Below are positions 10,033 through 19,078 of a DNA stretch of 24,000 nt, piece after piece. Position 1 is the first letter of the stretch; each line of letters begins with the position of its first letter. The translations under genes were made by a program, and so were the position numbers. Source of the DNA: Tractidigestivibacter sp. (GTDB taxonomy: Bacteria; Actinomycetota; Coriobacteriia; Coriobacteriales; Atopobiaceae); assembly GCF_050946515.1 (NCBI RefSeq), contig NZ_JBMNUX010000004.1, positions 160,105-184,104 of the forward strand. Reading direction: 5' to 3'. Below the pieces are notes generated by a model. The model searched no databases and was not told where the DNA came from. It worked only from the letters and a program-made list of their open reading frames with translations.

Positions 10033-11223
10033 CTACAGAAGGTGGAGCACGCCACGGACAAGGCTCTCGAAATCCGAGCCATGCTTCTTTGCCTCCGCAA
10101 GAACCGTTTCGTGCGTCGTGTCAGCCGCTCCGGCGTCGTTAGCGGCAAGCGTCAGCCCCAGCACGTTCATGCCCAAGGCCCGCGCCATGATGACCTCGTT
10201 GACCGTAGACATGCCCGTGTAGGACACGCCGAGCTTGCCCAGCGCGGCCACCTCGGCAGGGGTCTCAAAGCTGGGTCCAAGGACGCCAGCGAGCACGCCC
10301 TCCTCGACGGCGATGCCCAAATCGTCTGCCACGCCGCGGGCGATGGTGCGCAGGTAGGGAGAATATGCCGTGCTCATGTCCACGAACGGCGTGTCAACGT
10401 CACGGAGCTCGTCCCAGTCGGCCAGCGGGTTTCTCCCCGTCAAATTAATCTGGTCCGTGATGATGCCAAGACCCTTATGGGCATTGCCCGGAACGGCCCC
10501 GGTTGCGCAGGCAAAGATGATGTCGCGGCACCCAAGCCTAAAGGCATGGCGAACGAGCGAGGTCACCTCAGCTGCCGAGTAGCCCTGATACAGGTGGATG
10601 CGCCCCGGATAGACAATAACGGGTACGTCGTCGATGGAGCCGACCGTAGCCTCAAAGCTGTGCCCGGCAATGGGGCGCGCCGACTGCGGAAAGCCCTCGA
10701 TGTCGTGATAGTCAATGCGGCGGACAGGCTTAACAAGCTGCCCCAGATGGCCAAGACCGCTGCCCAGCACGATGGCAACTGGATGCTCGACGGACGGCTT
10801 GCAGGATTCGACGGTCTTCTCGGTAACCACGCAGATTCCCTCCTTCTCAAGGCGACGAGCCAGCACGCCTTCGCCTTTGATCACTCGACCAGTGTATGTC
10901 CCATCGTAGATGAGATGGACTCCGCAAGACGGGCTCTTTGCCTTCAGTACGGCAAGCGGCGCGCCAGACCTTCGGGCCGCTTCAAACGCAATGTCAGCGC
11001 CATGCTCGAACTGCAAGGTCACGTCGGTGCCGTCCTGAAGCCACACGCGCCCGTCCCGTTGCTCGGCAGGAGGCCTGGGAACCGGCAGCCCCGAGGAGCC
11101 TTCCGGGCAGACGCGTATGACCTCGAGCTTGCTTGCAAGCTCTGCCACGGCTGCATTGAGCTTGGAGCCCCCGTCGTAGCGCACAGGCGCACCTAGAAGA
11201 CACGCGCTCACGATTGCACGCAT
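10033..11223 (-). CDS. Fusion protein: N-terminal DUF523 (TudS-like [4Fe-4S] desulfidase domain) + C-terminal trimeric-type purine nucleoside phosphorylase
   Basis: The ORF (TTG at 11241) is trimmed to the ATG at 11223 (MRAIVSACLLG), which has AGAGG upstream. The N-terminal ~145 aa contain SACLLGAPVRYDGG, VCPEGSSGLPVPRPPAE and KAKSPSCGV..IYDG. The C-terminal ~250 aa contain GSGLG, GRIHLYQG, GPSFETPAE and MSTVNE, which are PNP/MTAP family hallmarks. Confidence 0.85.
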   Translation of the reverse strand: MRAIVSACLLGAPVRYDGGSKLNAAVAELASKLEVIRVCPEGSSGLPVPRPPAEQRDGRVWLQDGTDVTLQFEHGADIAFEAARRSGAPLAVLKAKSPSCGVHLIYDGTYTGRVIKGEGVLARRLEKEGICVVTEKTVESCKPSVEHPVAIVLGSGLGHLGQLVKPVRRIDYHDIEGFPQSARPIAGHSFEATVGSIDDVPVIVYPGRIHLYQGYSAAEVTSLVRHAFRLGCRDIIFACATGAVPGNAHKGLGIITDQINLTGRNPLADWDELRDVDTPFVDMSTAYSPYLRTIARGVADDLGIAVEEGVLAGVLGPSFETPAEVAALGKLGVSYTGMSTVNEVIMARALGMNVLGLTLAANDAGAADTTHETVLAEAKKHGSDFESLVRGVLHLL

Positions 11224-11277
11224 GAACGTCACCTCTCTCAAGCAAGGCCTTGCCTCGAGTGCCGTGTCGTCGACCTA

Positions 11278-11315
11278 TGAAAAGCGGGGGACAAGGCAGG
11301 CGCCCCATCCCCCGC
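11278..11315 (-). terminator. Rho-independent terminator after the membrane-protein gene
   Basis: On the minus strand: GCGGGGGA (11315-11308), a 16-nt loop, TCCCCCGC (11291-11284), then TTTTCAT. It begins 21 nt after the stop codon at 11337. Confidence 0.5.
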
Positions 11316-11336
11316 AAGCAAACGCTTGGCCAGCGG

Positions 11337-12323
11337 CTAGACAGCCAGCGTGTTGATCTGGACGGTGGAGGCGTCCAGAAGCGAGTTAACGTAGGCAGTC
11401 CACTCGGACGAGGCCTCGCTCGAAGCGGTAGAGTAGTCGGAGTAGGCAACGTAGTAGGCCTGCTCGGCTGCAGCATAGGTGGCAGAGTCGTTCGAGATGT
11501 CGTAGGTAGAGAGGGCGGAGTAGTACTCGCCGTCAGTGCGTGCCCACGTGTTGTTCTCGGAATCCCACTCGTCGCCAGCAAGCTCGATGATGTACTGAGC
11601 GTATTCGGAGCTTGCGGTGTCCTCGTTGCCGTCTTCGGGGGTCGAAGGAGCAGAGGGCGCGTCGGGAACCTCGGTGGTGACCACGGTGTCACGAAGCTTC
11701 TTCATGATCGTGGCGTCCTTCAGAAGCGCCTTGGTGGCGTCCTCGCTCAAGCCGTAGTTGGAGCCGATGGTGGCGTAGTCGGAGGTGCCCAGCGTGCTGG
11801 TGGCATACGAGTCGACCTCGTCGTCGGAGGCGTCAATGCCCTGGTCCTCAGCAGCCTGCAGCACGATCTCGTTGCGGATGTAGCTAATGATGGTGTCGGC
11901 GGAAGGCACGGTGTAGGTTCCGTCGTCGTTAGCCTGTTCGGAGACGTCGCCGTTCTGCTCGAGAACCTCGCGAGTAGTAACGGAAGTGGTCTTGCCGTTA
12001 TACGTGTAGGTAGCGATGGAGTCGTCCAGCGCAGACTCCTCGACCGTAGTAGTTCCAACGGAGGTGCTCGAGGAGCCAATCAGGAAGTGACCAATCAGAA
12101 TGCCGCCGACAAGAGCGACCACGCAAATGATGATCCAGACTGCGTTGGACAGGCTCTTACGAGGACCAGCGGACTTCGCAGGCTTCTTCTCGCGAGGCTC
12201 CTTGGCCTTCTTCTCTGGCTTCTTCTCGTCCTTCTTGTCATCCTTTTCGGGCTTCTTGGAGGAATCGTCAGGAGTCTCTATTGACTCATCCTTCTTTTCG
12301 TCCTTCTTTTCGGTGTCAGCCAT
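11337..12323 (-). CDS. Membrane-anchored protein with a Lys/Glu-rich cytoplasmic tail and a SurA-N/PrsA-N-like extracytoplasmic domain (no PPIase domain seen)
   Basis: The ATG at 12323 has AAAGGTGAGG upstream. Residues 1-57 are a K/E/D-rich low-complexity tail, followed by one TM helix (AVWIIICVVALVGGILIGHFLIG). The ectodomain pattern (YTYNGKTTSVTTREVLEQ.., IISYIRNEIVLQAAEDQGIDASDDEVDSY, ALLKDATIMKKLRDTVV) resembles SurA N-terminal chaperone domains. This is a family guess only. Confidence 0.6.
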   Translation of the reverse strand: MADTEKKDEKKDESIETPDDSSKKPEKDDKKDEKKPEKKAKEPREKKPAKSAGPRKSLSNAVWIIICVVALVGGILIGHFLIGSSSTSVGTTTVEESALDDSIATYTYNGKTTSVTTREVLEQNGDVSEQANDDGTYTVPSADTIISYIRNEIVLQAAEDQGIDASDDEVDSYATSTLGTSDYATIGSNYGLSEDATKALLKDATIMKKLRDTVVTTEVPDAPSAPSTPEDGNEDTASSEYAQYIIELAGDEWDSENNTWARTDGEYYSALSTYDISNDSATYAAAEQAYYVAYSDYSTASSEASSEWTAYVNSLLDASTVQINTLAV

Positions 12324-12467
12324 ACCTCACCTTTCGGCCCAGCGCCCTCGGGCGCATGGCAAAACGTACAGAGCATCTGCCATTCTAACGCAGACATGCG
12401 TTCGTCCCCCAAGCGTCATCCAATCAACGCGTGAGAGACGAACGCGAACTACAAAGCTGCAAGTAAC

Positions 12468-13061
12468 CTACTTTGTCTTGGGCTTCGCCGCAGCAACGAT
12501 CTGCTCGGAGTACTCCTTTGTGTATCCGTTGCCATGCTCGGCATCAAACGACATCCTGTCTACCAAGCTCTTGGCAGTCTTCTTGGAGATGGTGCCGTTT
12601 GCAAAGGCGAGAAGCCCTGCCAGCATGTCTCGATACTCGGCGTCTCCGTGATAGCACTGAACGGCCTCGTCCAGAAGCGACCACGCAGCGTCGGAGCGCT
12701 GCTCGGAAGTCGCTCCCACGCGGCACAAGAACAGGAAGGCCGCCAGGCGGACCGTTGCCGAGTCATCGTCAAACAGGGACGCCTCGGCGCCATCGAACGC
12801 CCCGGCAACCTGGTCTGGATACTCGTCTGCCATTTCTGAGAGCGCGTCCAGAACCTCCCAGCGAGTCTGCGCCTCGGGACGGTCGAGCGCGTCAACCAGC
12901 TGGTCCACGTAGTCGCACAGCGCGCTGGGGTTCGCCTTTGCCACGGCTGCAAGCTGGTGGGACATCTCTTGGCGCGTACGCCTGCTCCGCGACGACAGTC
13001 CCTCCACAAGCGCTGCAATGGCCTTTTCGCTCGCAGCGTCGTTCTCGCTTTCGTCTGCCAT
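12468..13061 (-). CDS. HEAT/ARM-like repeat protein (all-alpha, function unknown)
   Basis: ORF 12468..13103 trimmed to the ATG at 13061 (MADESEND), which has AGGGAG 7 nt upstream and lies 16 nt after the NYN gene stop. It has repeated helix-turn-helix units with R/E/D/L periodicity (RTRQEMSHQLAAVA.., EAQTRWEVLDALSEMA.., SATVRLAAFLFLCRVG..), as in HEAT repeats. Confidence 0.65.
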   Translation of the reverse strand: MADESENDAASEKAIAALVEGLSSRSRRTRQEMSHQLAAVAKANPSALCDYVDQLVDALDRPEAQTRWEVLDALSEMADEYPDQVAGAFDGAEASLFDDDSATVRLAAFLFLCRVGATSEQRSDAAWSLLDEAVQCYHGDAEYRDMLAGLLAFANGTISKKTAKSLVDRMSFDAEHGNGYTKEYSEQIVAAAKPKTK

Positions 13062-13077
13062 TTTGCAACTCCCTTTC

Positions 13078-13860
13078 TTACTCGCAGAACCCGTCGACAA
13101 CAACAGTGCCGCTCTTGGGGTCTTGGTGAATGTCGATAAAGCCGAGCTTCGCCGCCTCGCGAATCAGGGCAGTAAAGGAACGATACCCATAAGAAGCCTC
13201 TGAAAACTGCGGGCGCTTGCGACGCATCGTATCTTTCAGACGAGATGCAAGAATAAAGCTGTCGCTCTCGCGCTGCAGGGCATCGATGGTCTCAAAGAGC
13301 AGCTGGTAGCAGTCCTGCTTCTCCTTCGGCACCTTGGTCGAGAAGTCCGGAATCCCCGAGCCGCGCGAGAGGTCCTCATAAAAGATGAACTCGTCGCAGA
13401 CCTCGGCGAGAAGCGTGCTGGTTGAAGCTTTCATGCCTACGCCAATGACGGTCTTGCCGAACTCCTTGAGCTTTGAGACGAGCGGCGAGAAGTCCGAGTC
13501 TCCCGACAGAATGGCAAAGGTGTCGATGTGCTCCTTCGTAAGGCACATCTCTACTGCGTCGACCGCCAGGCGAATGTCGGCGGAGTTTTTGCCAGTATAG
13601 GCACGGTCAGGAATCTCGATGAGCTCGATCCCCAGCTCGTGCAGAGGGGTCACCGCCGTATCAAAGCGTTGCCAATCGCAATATGCGCGCTTGGCCGTGA
13701 TGCGTCCCTTGTCAACCAGCCGCTCGAGGATGAGCTTGACGTCGGGAGCGGGACCGGGCTCTTGGTGGCCGTTCTTCTTGCGCTTGCCGGTTCCAAGCGC
13801 AAGGTTCTCATAGTCGATGAACACCGCAATGGAGCTCTGCGGGGTTTCATTTCCATTCAT
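13078..13860 (-). CDS. NYN (LabA-like PIN-fold RNase) domain protein with a C-terminal OST-HTH/LOTUS domain
   Basis: NYN motifs are present: IAVFIDYENL, GKNSADIRLAVDA and ILSGDSDFSPLVSKLKEFGKTVIGVG. The C-terminal ~75 aa (LASRLKDTMRRKRPQFSEASYGYRSFTALIREAAKLGFIDI) fit OST-HTH/LOTUS. The start is either the ATG at 13860 (AAGGAG 14 nt upstream) or the TTG at 13872 (too close to the SD), so ATG is preferred. Confidence 0.8.
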   Translation of the reverse strand: MNGNETPQSSIAVFIDYENLALGTGKRKKNGHQEPGPAPDVKLILERLVDKGRITAKRAYCDWQRFDTAVTPLHELGIELIEIPDRAYTGKNSADIRLAVDAVEMCLTKEHIDTFAILSGDSDFSPLVSKLKEFGKTVIGVGMKASTSTLLAEVCDEFIFYEDLSRGSGIPDFSTKVPKEKQDCYQLLFETIDALQRESDSFILASRLKDTMRRKRPQFSEASYGYRSFTALIREAAKLGFIDIHQDPKSGTVVVDGFCE

Positions 13861-13895
13861 GCGTGTGTGCAATTCTCCTTTCGGACGAGGCCAAG

Positions 13896-14957
13896 CTAGT
13901 TGTTGCTGGCTACATCGCCCTTGTGGTCATGGTGATGGCAGCACTCGCCATTGCCATGGTCATGGCCGCACTCGCAGCCATCCTTGTGGTTGCTCTTGCC
14001 ATCGTCGTCCTCGTCGCCCTTCACAATGCTCTCGGCATCCAAGAGCGACCAGTCGAGACCGGCTGCGGCGGCAGTTGCCTCCTCCTGATAGAGCAGGGTG
14101 ATTGCCTGCGTTCCCATACGCTTTCCGCCAATCTGGCAGAGCATGTCGTACAGGGTGAACGCCGTCTCGGCGCCTGGAAGCGTAATGCCCCGGTCTTCTG
14201 CCTGAGAAAGCGCAAGGCCGATGTCCTTGCGCAGGTGCTCTGAGAGAAAGCCGGGCTTGTAGTCGCCAGCGACGGACTTCGGGGCCAAGCGCTCGAGCGC
14301 CACCGAGCCGCCCATGCCATGGCTCACCACGTCGAGCATCTGGGAGACATCTACGTCGCTCTGCTCTGCAAGCGCGATGGCATCGGCATAGCCAATCATG
14401 CAAGCGGCAAGCGACACCTGGTTGCAGAGCTTGGTGGTCTGGCCCTTGCCGGCTCCGCCCATGTAGTAGATCTTGCTAGAGAAGGTCTGAAGAATCGGCA
14501 GTACGGGAGCCGCGGTCTTCTCGTCGGTTCCGGCAATCAAGGTAAGCGTTCCGGCAATGGCGCCGTCCTCGCCGCCCGTAACAGGACAGTCAAAGGCGTG
14601 CTTGTCGTCAATCTCCGCAGCTTCGTATATGTCATGGGCAAGCTGCGACGACGAGGTCGTGAGGTCAATCAGGTAGGCACCCTTCTTTGTTGCGCGCAAA
14701 AGCCCGTTGGTCGTGAGGTAGACGTCCTCGACGTCGGAGGGATAGCCGAGCATCGTAAACACGACATCGGCATCCTTGGCGGCATCGGCAGGAGTGTCGG
14801 CCCAATGGGCGCCCTTTGCCACAAGGCCATCGGCCTTTGACTTTGTGCGGTTGTGCACCGTGAGGTCATAGCCGGCGTCCAGAATGTGGCCGGCAATGGG
14901 GGCACCCATGATGCCGGTGCCGATAAAGGCCACCTTGGGCTTTCTAGAAACGCTCAT
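13896..14957 (-). CDS. NAD(P)-dependent beta-hydroxyacid dehydrogenase (3-hydroxyisobutyrate / 2-hydroxy-3-oxopropionate reductase family) with a C-terminal His/Cys/Asp-rich tail
   Basis: ORF trimmed to the ATG at 14957 (MSVSRKPKVAFIGTGIMG), 18 nt after the degV stop. It has the Rossmann motif GTGIMG, FDCPVTGG and GKGQTTKLCNQ, typical of the HIBADH family. The extra ~65 aa end in DEDDDGKSNHKDGCECGHDHGNGECCHHHDHKGD. Confidence 0.85.
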   Translation of the reverse strand: MSVSRKPKVAFIGTGIMGAPIAGHILDAGYDLTVHNRTKSKADGLVAKGAHWADTPADAAKDADVVFTMLGYPSDVEDVYLTTNGLLRATKKGAYLIDLTTSSSQLAHDIYEAAEIDDKHAFDCPVTGGEDGAIAGTLTLIAGTDEKTAAPVLPILQTFSSKIYYMGGAGKGQTTKLCNQVSLAACMIGYADAIALAEQSDVDVSQMLDVVSHGMGGSVALERLAPKSVAGDYKPGFLSEHLRKDIGLALSQAEDRGITLPGAETAFTLYDMLCQIGGKRMGTQAITLLYQEEATAAAAGLDWSLLDAESIVKGDEDDDGKSNHKDGCECGHDHGNGECCHHHDHKGDVASNN

Positions 14958-14975
14958 GCAGTTGATTCCTTTCAA

Positions 14976-16091
14976 TTACTCCTTGTTCGTAGGGGCGCTG
15001 GCGTCAGAGTCCGGATCGTCAGACTTGCCGCGAACGCGCTTGGCGATGCGATCAGCCAGCGAGAGCTTCTCGCGGCGATCTGTGCCCCAAAAGACCATGG
15101 CAACCATGCCAGGTCCAACATGGCTCCCCAGGATGGGAGAGATCGAGGAGCGGATGATGGTGACGTCCTCGCAGCCCTTCTCCTTGCGAATCTCCTTCTC
15201 AAGCCAGTCGGCATCCTTCTCGGCATCGGCGCTCATGATTCCTAGAGGAAGCGATGGGTCATGCGAGTAGTTGTCGCGGAAGTCCTGGATGATGGCGCGA
15301 AGGGCCTTCCTGCGACCGCGGCACATGCCACGCAGCGTGAGGGCGCCCTTGGTGTCATAGGAAAGCTCGGGCTTGATGTCCAGGCGTCCGCCTACGTTTG
15401 CCGCCGCAGGCGGAATGCGGCCGCCCGCCGCCAGCGCGTCAAAGCTCTCCAGCGTGAAGTAGCCGTGGATGAAGTAGCGCGCCTCAGAGGCCCATTCGTA
15501 GAGCTCGCGCGCCGAGAGGCCCTTTGCTGCCTGATTGACAACCTCGATGGCGAGAAGCTCGCCAGCAGCCGAGTCGCAGCAGTTGTCCAGCACGTAGATC
15601 TCGAAGCCAGGATGGTTCTTGCGGACTATCTCGGCCGCCTGGCGCGCATTGTTAATCGAGGACGAAAGACCCTCGGGAAGCCCCATGTAGATGGTGGGCT
15701 TGCCCTCTTGGGCTGCCTTCTCGAAAATCTCAAGGTAGCGCCCCGGCGTTACTGCAGCGGTCGTGTAATGCATGTCGGGATGCTTGCGCATGTTCTCGTA
15801 AAACTCGTGGGGATCCTGGGTCTTCCACATGTCATCCACGTGCTCGCCGTCGGGGCCCACGTACGTAAACGGAATGACCTCGATGCCAAGCTGCTCGGGG
15901 ATGCCCGGCGCGTAGTCGGCCGTCGAGTCGACGATGATCTTTACGTTGCTGGGCTGGTGGTAGGGCTTTGCTACAAACGGCGCCGCGTGCGCGGCGCTGC
16001 TCTTCTCATTGTCTTCCGCCTTGTTGGAAGCGTCAGCGTCTGCCGCGGCGCCGGTATTGTTGGCGTCGATGGGGTCGTTCTCGTTAGCCAT
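14976..16091 (-). CDS. DegV family fatty-acid-binding protein with low-complexity N- and C-terminal extensions
   Basis: The ATG at 16091 has GGGAG 5 nt upstream and lies 20 nt after the hpf stop. The core has VKIIVDSTADY, SSSINNARQAAE and PILGSHVGPGMVAMVF, typical of DegV. A ~48-aa acidic/Ala-rich N-terminal extension and a charged C-terminal tail are additional. Confidence 0.85.
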   Translation of the reverse strand: MANENDPIDANNTGAAADADASNKAEDNEKSSAAHAAPFVAKPYHQPSNVKIIVDSTADYAPGIPEQLGIEVIPFTYVGPDGEHVDDMWKTQDPHEFYENMRKHPDMHYTTAAVTPGRYLEIFEKAAQEGKPTIYMGLPEGLSSSINNARQAAEIVRKNHPGFEIYVLDNCCDSAAGELLAIEVVNQAAKGLSARELYEWASEARYFIHGYFTLESFDALAAGGRIPPAAANVGGRLDIKPELSYDTKGALTLRGMCRGRRKALRAIIQDFRDNYSHDPSLPLGIMSADAEKDADWLEKEIRKEKGCEDVTIIRSSISPILGSHVGPGMVAMVFWGTDRREKLSLADRIAKRVRGKSDDPDSDASAPTNKE

Positions 16092-16111
16092 GTACTCTCC
16101 CGCCGTTGATG

Positions 16112-16702
16112 CTATTGCTGCTCTTCAATCTTCGGCTTGATAATGCCGTATCCGCCATTCTTTCTATGGTAGATGACGTTAACGAGCCCAGTTGTGGCAT
16201 TTGTGAACACATAGAAATCATGCCCGAGCAGGTCGGTCTGGACCAGCGCCTCTTCCTCGCTCATTGGCGTGAACTCAACGTACTTCTCGCGCACGAGGCG
16301 ATCGTCCTCGTCCAGCTCTTCTGCGGAGGGCTGAATCAACGACGCGAGCTCGTCGGCGCTCGCAGCGGGCGGGTGCGGAACCTGCGCGCGCTGACGTCGG
16401 TCGATGATGCGGGTCTTGTACTTGCGAAGCTGGCGGGATACCTTGTCGGCGGCCTCGTCGATGGCGGCATACATGTCATCAGAGCTTGCAACAACGCGCA
16501 CGACGTTCTTGCGGACAAATACCGTGACCTCGCAAGCCTTTCTTTCTGGATTAGAGGGGTTCTTGTCAACGCGCAGCACAACGTCGCAGGTCATAGGAGA
16601 AATATCGAAGACCTTGAGGGCGTCGCCAATCTTTTCCTCAACATGCTGGCGGAGAGAGTCAGAAACTGTGACCTTGCGGCCCGAGATCTTGATGTCAACC
16701 AT
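16112..16702 (-). CDS. hpf: Ribosome hibernation-promoting factor, long form (HPF/RaiA/YvyD family)
   Basis: ORF 16112..16957 trimmed to the ATG at 16702 (MVDIKISGRKVTVSDSLRQHVEEKI), which has AAGGAGG 5 nt upstream. It has the N-terminal S30AE fold plus the C-terminal dimerisation domain (FTPMSEEEALVQTDLLGHDFYVFTN..VNVIYHRKNGGYGIIKP). Confidence 0.9.
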   Translation of the reverse strand: MVDIKISGRKVTVSDSLRQHVEEKIGDALKVFDISPMTCDVVLRVDKNPSNPERKACEVTVFVRKNVVRVVASSDDMYAAIDEAADKVSRQLRKYKTRIIDRRQRAQVPHPPAASADELASLIQPSAEELDEDDRLVREKYVEFTPMSEEEALVQTDLLGHDFYVFTNATTGLVNVIYHRKNGGYGIIKPKIEEQQ

Positions 16703-16758
16703 ACGTGCCTCCTTACGATAGCCACGCCGCGTCTGACGAAAAGGCAGCGTCAGGGCAG

Positions 16759-16790
16759 CCGTTAATAATGTGATACCCAAATGCAAGCCC
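16759..16790 (-). promoter_or_regulatory. AT-rich patch, possible hpf-proximal promoter
   Basis: This is the only AT-rich stretch near hpf. The minus strand reads CTTGCATTTGGGTATCACATTATTAACGG. It contains TTGCAT and a GGGTAT hexamer, which resembles the stress-sigma -10 motif. No hexamer pair has canonical spacing, so the assignment is weak. Confidence 0.25.
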
Positions 16791-16899
16791 GCTGCGGCCG
16801 GCGTTGCGGCAGACGTAGAGATTCCACGGGACGTGCGGAGGCTTGCGCGCGGCTCAGGCACCTTGCGAGAAGAGCTCCGGAAAAGAGCGTCCCACCCAG

Positions 16900-17151
16900 C
16901 TGACCTGGTTTTTGACCCCACACTCGCGCACTGGGGCCTTCGCTTGAGGGGCTGCACGGCCCCGCAACTTGAAACCCTCTCGCCCGCGAGGCCGGATGCC
17001 TCTTTGTTTGTTAGACGGACGGTGCGGCTTACTTCTAGGACGAACCATGATCGCAGGCAGGCGCACCCGCCAGCTTACGTGGATCCCTTTGGCCTCGTCT
17101 GCCATGGACTAGGGCGCGCGTCGCGCCCGCAACCACAGACCTAGGTGGAAC
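16900..17151 (-). ncRNA. Probable raiA-motif ncRNA (boundaries approximate)
   Basis: It lies in the 516-nt ORF-free comFC-hpf spacer, which is the characteristic genomic context of the raiA motif class in Firmicutes and Actinobacteria. It contains dense GC helices (17112-17128; 16948-16963 enclosed by 16923-16928/16985-16990). A perfect TATAAT lies just upstream on the same strand. No covariance-model search was run. Confidence 0.45.
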
Positions 17152-17157
17152 GAAGGG

Positions 17158-17163
17158 ATTATA
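17158..17163 (-). promoter_or_regulatory. Perfect TATAAT -10 box upstream of the structured RNA region
   Basis: The minus strand reads GGACGTATAATCCCTTCG. No good -35 was found 16-18 nt upstream. A consensus hexamer is notable in such GC-rich DNA. Confidence 0.35.
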
Positions 17164-17218
17164 CGTCCTAGCAGCGAAGATAGTGAGAGTGCTTGCGAAA
17201 AAAGCCGCTAGAGCCACA

Positions 17219-18010
17219 TCACCACACGCGTGCGAGCGCGCAGCCGGTGACTGACGCCGCGCCACGGGCGAGAAGGGCGCGAGCCGACTCGCGCATCGAG
17301 GTCCCTGTCGTCACCACGTCGTCGGCCAGAAGCAGGTCAAGGCCGGCCACGTCGTCCACCACCTCGACGGTTCCCGCCAGGTTCTCCGCACGGTCCTTCT
17401 TGCCAAGGGCGCGCTGGTCTTTGGCGTCGCGGCGCGCAAGCACGTCCGCCACGGGAAGTCCCAGCTCGCGGCCGAGAGCACAGGACACGAGCTCCATGTG
17501 GTCAAAGCCACGCCTCGCATATGCAGCTGGCGTGGCAGGAACAAAGCAGAGCGCGTCAATCGCCGAGGGGTCAAAGCGAGCGCAGCCATCCCGGGCCGGC
17601 CAAGAAGACGCCTCGTCGAGCGACGTGGCCATTGCTGCCGCTATGACGGGGGCAAGCCGCAGCTCATGTGCGTCTTTCAGGCATGAGACCATGCGCGCTG
17701 GCGCGCCGGAAAACCCCATCGAGCAGATCACCGTGCGCGTCTCCCAGTCATGCTCGCACTCGGTGCAGGTGAGGTAGCCAAACGGCGCGCCGCAGTCGGG
17801 GCACGCCCAGCGCTGGCAGATCCACGGCAGAGAGGCGCGGCACTTCTCGCAAAGAAGCTCGCCAGGCATCTCGCAAAAGACGCAGCGCGTGGGCCAAAGA
17901 AGCTCGGCGAACGCATCCGCCACGCTAGATGCCCCAATACGCACAGCGACCCCCTTCCAGCTCGTGGACGGGGGTCGCCTCGATTCAACCGATGGTAGCA
18001 CAGCGACCAC
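17219..18010 (-). CDS. comFC: ComF family protein (ComFC-like, zinc-finger + phosphoribosyltransferase fold)
   Basis: N-terminal Cys clusters (CVFCEMPGELLCEKC .. CPDCGAPFG..CTEC) and the PRTase motif LLLADDVVTTGTSM. The longest ORF starts at the GTG at 18010 with no RBS. An alternative GTG at 17944 has GGAAGGGGG upstream and would give ~241 aa. Confidence 0.8.
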   Translation of the reverse strand: MVAVLPSVESRRPPSTSWKGVAVRIGASSVADAFAELLWPTRCVFCEMPGELLCEKCRASLPWICQRWACPDCGAPFGYLTCTECEHDWETRTVICSMGFSGAPARMVSCLKDAHELRLAPVIAAAMATSLDEASSWPARDGCARFDPSAIDALCFVPATPAAYARRGFDHMELVSCALGRELGLPVADVLARRDAKDQRALGKKDRAENLAGTVEVVDDVAGLDLLLADDVVTTGTSMRESARALLARGAASVTGCALARVW

Positions 18011-18046
18011 AAGCGAACGTGGAGCCGGGCCTTCAAGGCAAGGGGC

Positions 18047-19078
18047 TCATAGCGAGAAGAGCGCGCAGGCGTTCTCCCAAAACGCCCGATACGTCGCGGC
18101 CGGGCCAGACGTGCCCGCCACGTCGCGCTCATGCGCGACGCAAGCGGCAGAGAACGCCACCATGGCAGGCTCGCACTCCTCGCCACGAAGCGGCACCGGC
18201 GCCATGTAGGGGCAGTCGGTCTCTGAGAGCAGGCGGTCAGTGGGACAAGCGGCAGCAGCTGCGCGGATGTCGCCGGAACGCTTGAACGTGGCTGCGCCGC
18301 CAAAGGCGATGTAGCAGCCAAGCTCAACGAACGGCCGCATGACCTCGGGGCCGTCGGTGAAGCAGTGCAGGTCGCAGCCAGCCGCGGGGACGCCGCAATC
18401 AGAGAGCACGCGGACGGCAAGCTCGCGGGCCGAGTGGTCGTCTTCCTCTACGCCATCGCGAATGTGCAGCTCGACCGGCAGGCCATGCTCGCCGGCGATG
18501 TCCAGCTGCTTTCGGAACGCCTCCTCCTGCACGCTCGCGCCAAGCTCGTTGTAGGGACCAAAGTCAAGGCCAATCTCCCCCACCCCGACGCAGCGAGGGC
18601 TGGAAAGGAGCTCCTCCAAGCGTGCAATGGCCCCATCGTCGAACGCGTCTGCCCCGTACGGGTGCACGCCAGCAACAATATGCACGTTGTCAACGAGGTC
18701 CGGAAGATCTACACCCTCCCACCCAAGGGGAACGGGCGGGACAAGCCCGCGGCTCGCGCACTGGTCGAGCAGACGCGCCGCCTCGTCGACCTGCCGGTTA
18801 ATCCAGTCAAGATATGCCGCGGGGCTCGCAAACTTGCGCGGGATCTCGTCCACGGGGTCAACCGGGACCACCAGAAGCCGGACGCCCGCCAAGGCGGCCC
18901 GGCAGATGGCGGCAGAGGCGTCGCGTCCGCGAAAGCTCGTCAGATGCCCATGGCTGTCTGCAAGCGGGGCAAGCGCGCGCGGAAGCTCGCGCGGACGGCC
19001 TTTCTTGTCGTGGAACAGCTGCCCGTCCTCGAGCGTGAGGGCATCCAGGCAGATGGGCTCATTGGGCATGAGCTTCAT
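18047..19078 (-). CDS. tatD: TatD family metal-dependent hydrolase/DNase
   Basis: The motifs DSHGHL, GEIGLD, ELHIRD and SETDCPYMAP are typical of TatD. The start is at the ATG at 19078 or 19069, and both overlap the 3' end of rsmA (stop at 19059-19061). The protein is longer than the ~260 aa I recall as typical, with an N-terminal extension and an internal insertion. Confidence 0.85.
   Translation of the reverse strand: MKLMPNEPICLDALTLEDGQLFHDKKGRPRELPRALAPLADSHGHLTSFRGRDASAAICRAALAGVRLLVVPVDPVDEIPRKFASPAAYLDWINRQVDEAARLLDQCASRGLVPPVPLGWEGVDLPDLVDNVHIVAGVHPYGADAFDDGAIARLEELLSSPRCVGVGEIGLDFGPYNELGASVQEEAFRKQLDIAGEHGLPVELHIRDGVEEDDHSARELAVRVLSDCGVPAAGCDLHCFTDGPEVMRPFVELGCYIAFGGAATFKRSGDIRAAAAACPTDRLLSETDCPYMAPVPLRGEECEPAMVAFSAACVAHERDVAGTSGPAATYRAFWENACALFSL

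Follow-up and report, generated by a model that had tools for sequence, protein, structure and literature searches.

Which genes share a transcript with hpf, the gene for the ribosome-silencing protein HPF, in Tractidigestivibacter, and could a predicted ribonuclease (RNase) be among their products? The question is raised by five closely packed minus-strand genes of contig NZ_JBMNUX010000004.1 (assembly GCF_050946515.1; positions 160,105 to 184,104 of the forward strand), a stretch of 24,000 nucleotides (nt) that we analyzed as one window and whose own numbering is used below. The DNA is that of a gut or rumen actinobacterium of the family Atopobiaceae, whose genus Tractidigestivibacter was formerly placed in Olsenella, and HPF has a central part in the dormancy and regrowth of bacteria. 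The five genes encode HPF, a DegV-family protein, a β-hydroxyacid dehydrogenase, a protein that combines an NYN nuclease domain with a LOTUS domain (NYN-LOTUS) and a HEAT-like protein, and they probably make up an hpf operon specific to the Atopobiaceae lineage. Their order and tight spacing recur throughout the family and are, for this reason, beyond chance. The model that we favor, in our judgment a probable one, is that all five are co-transcribed from a stress-type promoter; the five-gene unit is also the most economical model of the transcript.

Proteins were identified from Pfam and NCBIfam profile scores against the curated cut-offs, and RNAs with Rfam covariance models. In the direction of transcription, the cluster comprises hpf (16702-16112; 196 amino acids, aa), degV (16091-14976; 371 aa), the dehydrogenase gene (14957-13896; 353 aa), the NYN-LOTUS gene (13860-13078; 260 aa) and the HEAT-like gene (13061-12468; 197 aa), all on the minus strand and separated by junctions of 20, 18, 35 and 16 nt. 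An earlier note on this DNA had described the packing correctly but left the dehydrogenase/NYN junction at either 35 or 23 nt; the value is 35 nt because the alignments of relatives begin at the ATG at 13860, and the shorter gap was discarded. A later start for degV, which would widen the hpf/degV gap, was ruled out, as the stretch from there to the start of the domain, downstream of 16091, offers no further in-frame ATG, GTG or TTG. Every start among the five genes is preceded by an AGGAG-like Shine-Dalgarno sequence, as the note had observed, and its report that no hairpin with a U-tract separates the genes agrees with both a terminator scan and the folding of each junction. Further, no terminator-like hairpin was found between hpf and the DegV domain in 27 other Atopobiaceae sequence clusters.

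We mapped all proteins of the window by tblastn onto fetched loci and considered the best 80 NYN loci. The order Hpf, DegV, dehydrogenase, (small membrane protein), NYN, HEAT, SurA_N and TudS-PNP was recovered in 67 of these 80 Atopobiaceae loci. A contig end falls inside the cluster in the remaining 13, and every locus of sufficient length keeps the order. It extends to a 14-kb block, from MetG to TudS-PNP, that is preserved across the family. The hpf gene also lies directly before degV in 12 sampled Atopobiaceae genomes representing 10 genera, of which three carry hpf-degV-dehydrogenase-HEAT without NYN; one locus stops after degV. In 8 genera the end of hpf overlaps the beginning of degV by 8 or 11 nt, and the NYN and HEAT genes are 16-60 nt apart in most loci of the family. 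The dehydrogenase gene directly follows degV wherever both were located, with genome G024 as the sole exception. That genome is 57% complete; in its locus (L019), the genes next after degV are those for a small membrane protein and NYN, and a dehydrogenase gene was not found between degV and NYN. A metagenome-assembled contig (CADCPM010000056.1) carries the same cluster twice in opposite orientation (L117 and L118), which is probably an assembly artifact or an inverted duplication.

The small membrane protein gene (130-160 aa, two membrane helices, motif G[FY]G.SVGPWK) occupies the dehydrogenase/NYN junction in 28 of the 80 loci, and its carriers are found inside and outside the family (L011:9474-9959, L012, L030, L015, L019, L021 and L022). 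No homolog was detected anywhere in the genome studied here (tblastn E > 0.1), and only the 35-nt spacer (13861-13895) stands in its place, which looks like a clean loss. Same-genus relatives have about 490 nt between their dehydrogenase and NYN genes; this interval contains the conserved gene and was therefore ruled out as a promoter region.

The sequence upstream of hpf diverges fast between genera, yet the motif tGGGTA[TC] persists 55-88 nt before the ATG. Sorting the dissimilar Atopobiaceae sequences before hpf into 32 clusters, we found the motif in 24-25 of them and no unrelated hexamer in more than 8; GGGTAA is present in three of the clusters that lack it. By its sequence, GGGTA[TC] is the type of -10 element found in SigB/SigF (group 3) promoters. 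The consensus in Mycobacterium smegmatis is GTTT-N14-19-GGGTA (PMC4694148), that of Bacillus subtilis is GTTTAA-N12-14-GGG(A/T)A(A/T), and in Streptomyces promoters the GGG is invariant and the -35 element is a weak GNNT (PMC8346170). Further, hpf is SigB-dependent in Staphylococcus aureus and B. subtilis, and the S. aureus operon, in which hpf is the last gene, has the promoter AGGTTT-N17-GGGTAT (PMC6256015). We infer that the GGGTAT hexamer in the window (16778-16773, minus strand), 76 nt before the hpf ATG, would be the -10 element of a working stress promoter. By its profile score the genome also encodes a sigma factor of the cognate type: a gene at C11:10537-11208 scores 288.4 bits against the TIGR02980 cut-off of 234.35 for the SigB/F/G subfamily. 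At this sigma factor locus (G000:C11:10537-11896, L127), a 136-aa open reading frame overlaps the start of the gene, and a DUF948 gene lies before that. The product of the open reading frame bears a weak resemblance to RsbW (HATPase_c_2, E = 4e-4, under the cut-off).

At the other end of the cluster, a 19-bp stem-loop without a U-tract (12445-12398, minus strand) begins 22 nt past the HEAT stop codon. Its fold is unusually stable (z = -3.83 for 12310-12480), and none of 200 shuffled sequences equaled it; relatives have hairpins of other sequence and equal stability at the same position. We propose this stem-loop as the putative 3' end or stabilizer of a five-gene transcript. It is followed by TAGAAT (12387-12382, minus strand), the proposed housekeeping-type -10 element of the SurA_N-like membrane protein gene (12323-11337, minus strand). 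The hexamer lies within CTGCGnTAGAATG, a motif conserved in same-genus spacers, and is present in 14 of the 42 spacer clusters before the SurA_N-like gene. The region could combine an actinobacterial-style terminator that lacks a U-tail with a promoter behind it. The SurA_N-like gene itself is closed by a strong, canonical terminator (11315-11284, minus strand), in which a stem of 14 bp, 10 of them GC pairs, stands ahead of TTTT.

The earlier note had suggested looking for the same gene order in other Coriobacteriia, and here the answer is divided: the order holds throughout Atopobiaceae and breaks up outside the family. Two sister families (f13, 15 of 15 sampled; f4, 2 of 2) have hpf, degV and the dehydrogenase gene adjacent and no NYN, and they carry a 12-bp GC hairpin with a T-run between hpf and degV, 20-26 nt past the hpf stop (examples are L034 from G036, L035 from G027 and L042 from G038). 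Five further families keep degV-dehydrogenase-(small membrane protein)-NYN together, with HEAT 2-6 kb downstream; their comFC-raiA-hpf genes are at a distance of 10-25 kb or on a separate contig and, where located, lie beyond TudS. Linkage of hpf with degV was seen neither in family f3 (0 of 16) nor in other orders of the class, and HEAT also occurs without NYN outside Atopobiaceae. A protein search for homologs of NYN-LOTUS returned close Atopobiaceae relatives only and no distant homologs near hpf, and tblastn placed no other gene of the window near the weak NYN paralogs at L025-L029. As judged from these comparisons, the cluster is modular and lineage-specific, its most stable pair is degV and the dehydrogenase gene, and the joining of hpf and degV in one apparently terminator-free unit is specific to Atopobiaceae. 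The terminator in two families and its lack in Atopobiaceae look like the evolutionary fusion of two transcription units.

These results suggest the following model. A promoter of the SigB/SigF type would start transcription about 60-70 nt before hpf, and RNA polymerase would continue through degV and the dehydrogenase, NYN-LOTUS and HEAT-like genes because the junctions of 16-35 nt hold no terminator. The transcript would then be ended or stabilized at the 19-bp hairpin, and the translation of each cistron would be driven by its own Shine-Dalgarno sequence. On either side, the raiA RNA would be made from a TATAAT promoter of its own and the SurA_N-like gene from its TAGAAT promoter up to the canonical terminator. 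The unit may have originated from older Coriobacteriales modules (comFC-raiA-hpf, degV-dehydrogenase-(small membrane protein)-NYN, and HEAT) that lie near one another in the order and were joined in Atopobiaceae, where the terminator after hpf would have been lost. With this loss, the downstream genes would have come under the stress and stationary-phase control of hpf. The co-transcription put forward in the earlier note is plausible on several grounds: neighboring genes overlap or are closely spaced, in none of the 27 other clusters does a terminator recur behind hpf, a single conserved promoter-like motif precedes hpf and the HEAT gene has a stable hairpin behind it.

Several points weigh against the model. 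The window has no GTTT or GNNT -35 box 14-17 nt from GGGTAT and no T at the expected place; candidates for this element are found elsewhere, in same-genus relatives (GCGT-N16-GGGTAC) and in G036 (GTTTAC-N15-GGGTAC). A search of the sequence before the sigma factor cluster gave no GGGTA[CT], so that the model gains no support from autoregulation. There may be promoters within coding sequence. Inside degV, codons 32-41 (about 15998-15972) contain a weak, GC-only 7-bp hairpin followed by CGTTTGTAG, and this hairpin with its UUUGU could terminate part of the transcripts. As the hairpin at the far end lacks a U-tract, read-through into the SurA_N-like gene is possible as well. Finally, the genomes compared are related, so that the counts of loci describe a distribution and not independent events. 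The hairpin inside degV is located in the acidic N-terminal extension of the protein and is not conserved even within the genus; it is possibly a weak attenuator or a chance structure.

The same hairpin can be counted in favor of a different explanation, in which the block metG-ksgA-tatD-comFC-raiA-hpf-degV-...-tudS was inherited vertically and its synteny reflects descent with no common transcript. Transcripts would then cover mostly hpf alone at a high level, and the downstream genes would be served by weak internal promoters or low read-through. A gene order that is stable in the family over all 14 kb from MetG to TudS-PNP fits this explanation, as does the strong terminator that splits hpf from degV in families f13 and f4 in spite of their adjacency. 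Moreover, HPF is needed in amounts that match the ribosomes, and an RNase or an enzyme is not. However, descent alone sits poorly with an hpf/degV overlap of 8-11 nt across 8 genera and with the 27 other Atopobiaceae clusters in which hpf is followed by no terminator-like hairpin. The 16-35-nt gaps are also too small for promoters outside coding sequence, and a sigma-70 promoter scan of 11000-18500 returned 0 sites. We therefore regard descent with no common transcript as rather unlikely and retain co-transcription as the preferred model.

Would a shared transcript also mean a shared function? The five proteins are predicted with different degrees of precision. HPF scores 87.8 bits for S30AE (PF02482, Ribosomal_S30AE), 82 bits for the S30AE_C dimerization domain (PF16321) and 80 bits for TIGR00741 against a cut-off of 40.9, and by these profiles it is the long, dimerizing form; its gene is the sole copy found in the genome. 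DegV, a predicted fatty-acid-binding protein of the DegV/FakB type (Pfam DegV, 176.9 bits; TIGR00762, 191 bits against 99.7), carries an acidic N-terminal extension of 49 aa and is, by profile, a member of the DegV family below the level of a FakB equivalog, as it reaches just 90.5 bits with the FakB1 model NF038249, whose cut-off is 350. The genome encodes 4 DegV paralogs, including the one in the cluster, and has one Dak2/FakA-like gene elsewhere. The dehydrogenase is of the HIBADH type (NAD_binding_2, 158 bits; NAD_binding_11, 91 bits) and falls under every NCBIfam equivalog cut-off (e.g., TIGR01505, 196.8 bits against 340.75). It has a Cys/His-rich C-terminal tail, and its nearest solved structures are those of the HIBADH family 3w6u/3ws7 (1e-59) and also 3obb, which we take to be L-serine dehydrogenases, a name that the depositions do not give.

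The NYN-LOTUS protein combines a clear NYN (LK-nuclease) domain (PF01936, 119.9 bits) with an OST-HTH (LOTUS) domain that passes only marginally (PF12872, 23.9 bits against 23.8), and the architecture is thus that of a predicted RNase with a marginal OST-HTH assignment. Of the five proteins it is the most highly conserved, with identities of 93-94% within the genus and 61-86% beyond it. Bacterial NYN-LOTUS proteins are relatives of animal MARF1, and to our knowledge they have no known role. The HEAT-like protein of the window falls 0.5 bit short of the HEAT_EZ cut-off (26.5 bits against 27), yet 10 of 19 orthologs match HEAT_2, the AlphaFold model is a 10-helix solenoid with a predicted local distance difference test (pLDDT) score of 95.8, and Foldseek aligned this model with designed armadillo repeat proteins at a template modeling (TM) score of 0.75. 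The assignment as HEAT in the earlier note, here broadened to a HEAT/ARM alpha-solenoid, is therefore sound at the level of the modeled fold.

These identities invite an explanation in which the cluster is a true dormancy module: HPF would silence ribosomes, the NYN-LOTUS nuclease with the HEAT protein as its adaptor would remove or trim RNA, and DegV and the dehydrogenase would adjust the lipid or redox state, all of them being needed together in stationary phase. The likely sharing of a stress-type promoter speaks for it, as do the high conservation of NYN-LOTUS (61-94% identity overall) and the spacing of 16-60 nt between NYN and HEAT in most Atopobiaceae loci. A link to an RNase is also thinkable, as HPF shields ribosomes from RNase attack in S. 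aureus (PMC8406268). Nonetheless, three Atopobiaceae genera and families f13 and f4 have the cluster otherwise intact but lack NYN, the degV-dehydrogenase-NYN genes are 10-25 kb from hpf in five other families, and outside the family HEAT occurs without NYN or 2-6 kb from it. Nor are there biochemical data for any bacterial NYN-LOTUS protein (PMC2848206). We consider such a module improbable, and it is just as doubtful that the loss of the terminator would have placed NYN-LOTUS and its HEAT partner under the stress sigma factor of HPF so that hibernation and RNA removal are switched together. The dormancy or RNA-turnover program hinted at in the earlier note stays speculation in a cluster that is modular and lacks NYN in three genera and two families. 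The evidence does not imply that the five proteins work together, and a shared role of their genes in dormancy is possible.

The note had also considered control by the raiA-like RNA upstream. This raiA-motif (ModT) RNA (17149-16891, minus strand) is a separate gene upstream of the cluster and matches RF03072 over its full length (model positions 1-209; 155.4 bits, where the gathering threshold is 101.3). It might be taken for a cis-acting, riboswitch-like leader of hpf and the genes behind it, as it lies on the same strand 188 nt upstream and as Rfam classes the family as Cis-reg. However, a TATAAT (17163-17158) ends 8 nt before the first base of the RNA and could serve as its own promoter, and the conserved GGGTAT stands between the RNA and hpf. 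Shuffled versions of the 188-nt spacer fold just as well (z = 0.04), and no terminator or structure masking the Shine-Dalgarno sequence stands out in the spacer itself. Most Atopobiaceae, furthermore, have a same-strand gene for a lipoprotein of about 330 aa between the RNA and hpf (L084, L058, L075, L120, L076 and L067), which resembles the substrate-binding protein of an amino-acid ATP-binding cassette (ABC) transporter; the gene is absent from the genus studied here, where the comFC-hpf gap is 516-1091 nt. In seven relatives of other families the RNA directly follows comFC and hpf lies 1.3-5 kb further on, and in the two families with a distance of 4-5 kb the RNA remains directly after comFC. 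By synteny, the RNA tracks comFC and not hpf. The raiA RNA has been described as abundant, independent and trans-acting (PMC10861870, PMC11706538). Cis control of the operon is unlikely because the RNA tracks comFC, has its own TATAAT and is published as acting in trans, and we dismiss a role as leader, on the fold of the spacer, the linkage to comFC in relatives and the published trans action, as highly improbable.

The cluster is part of a train of genes that runs in one direction on the minus strand and is headed by a HerA-like gene (23591-21687). This gene is followed by metG (21602-19920), ksgA (19919-19059), tatD (19174-18047) and comFC (18010-17219), which precede the raiA RNA, and the TudS-PNP fusion (11241-10033) comes after the SurA_N-like gene. 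Among Rfam families, no other match at E ≤ 1 was obtained in 11200-17300 save a chance match to a CRISPR repeat.

How does the locus compare with known systems? The three-gene operon of S. aureus ends in hpf and likewise encodes a long, dimerizing HPF behind a -10 element of the GGGTAT type (PMC6256015). The hpf gene in Atopobiaceae (Actinomycetota) appears to share a GGGTAT-type stress promoter with the Firmicutes. In B. subtilis, hpf (yvyD) also encodes the long form and is under the control of sigma-B and sigma-H. Its neighborhood there presumably has comFC just upstream, an old Gram-positive arrangement, and secA-prfB after it. Unlike in these Firmicutes units, hpf is the first gene here and not the last, it is followed by the degV, dehydrogenase, NYN-LOTUS and HEAT genes and not by secA-prfB, and the promoter is predicted rather than mapped.

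The closest description of the neighborhood is the comFC-raiA RNA-raiA(hpf) locus of Soares et al. (2024), which shares the position of the RNA between comFC and hpf and for which the usual neighbors are comFC (74%) and raiA/hpf (66%), with degV among further common ones (PMC10861870). That work gives neighbor frequencies only and includes neither the hpf-degV-dehydrogenase-NYN-HEAT unit nor the loss of the terminator or the stress promoter. The linkage, which the earlier note was not aware of having been described, is therefore not wholly new as regards hpf and degV because degV is listed there among the common neighbors. With the FakA/FakB fatty acid kinase system the locus shares the DegV fold, in a genome with one Dak2/FakA-like gene and four DegV paralogs; the DegV of the cluster differs from FakB in scoring far below the FakB1 cut-off, in its acidic N-terminal extension and in being paired with a dehydrogenase and not with fakA/plsX.

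The architecture of the NYN-LOTUS protein is the two-domain combination of LK-nuclease (NYN) and OST-HTH reported by Anantharaman, Zhang and Aravind (2010), who predicted such bacterial proteins to be stand-alone RNases with no conserved links or neighborhood with known RNA-processing systems (PMC2848206). Here, by contrast, the gene has a fixed, family-wide place behind hpf-degV-dehydrogenase and ahead of the HEAT-like gene, a modest addition to that picture. A family-wide unit that joins HPF and NYN-LOTUS is a reasonable lead toward a phenotype for the nuclease and at present no discovery. If true, a joint dormancy program would be the first physiological role for bacterial NYN-LOTUS proteins, and the terminator between hpf and degV in sister families offers a natural control for the idea of a shared unit. 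Compared with the systems above, the locus is a lineage-specific variant of the hpf operon under a stress sigma factor.

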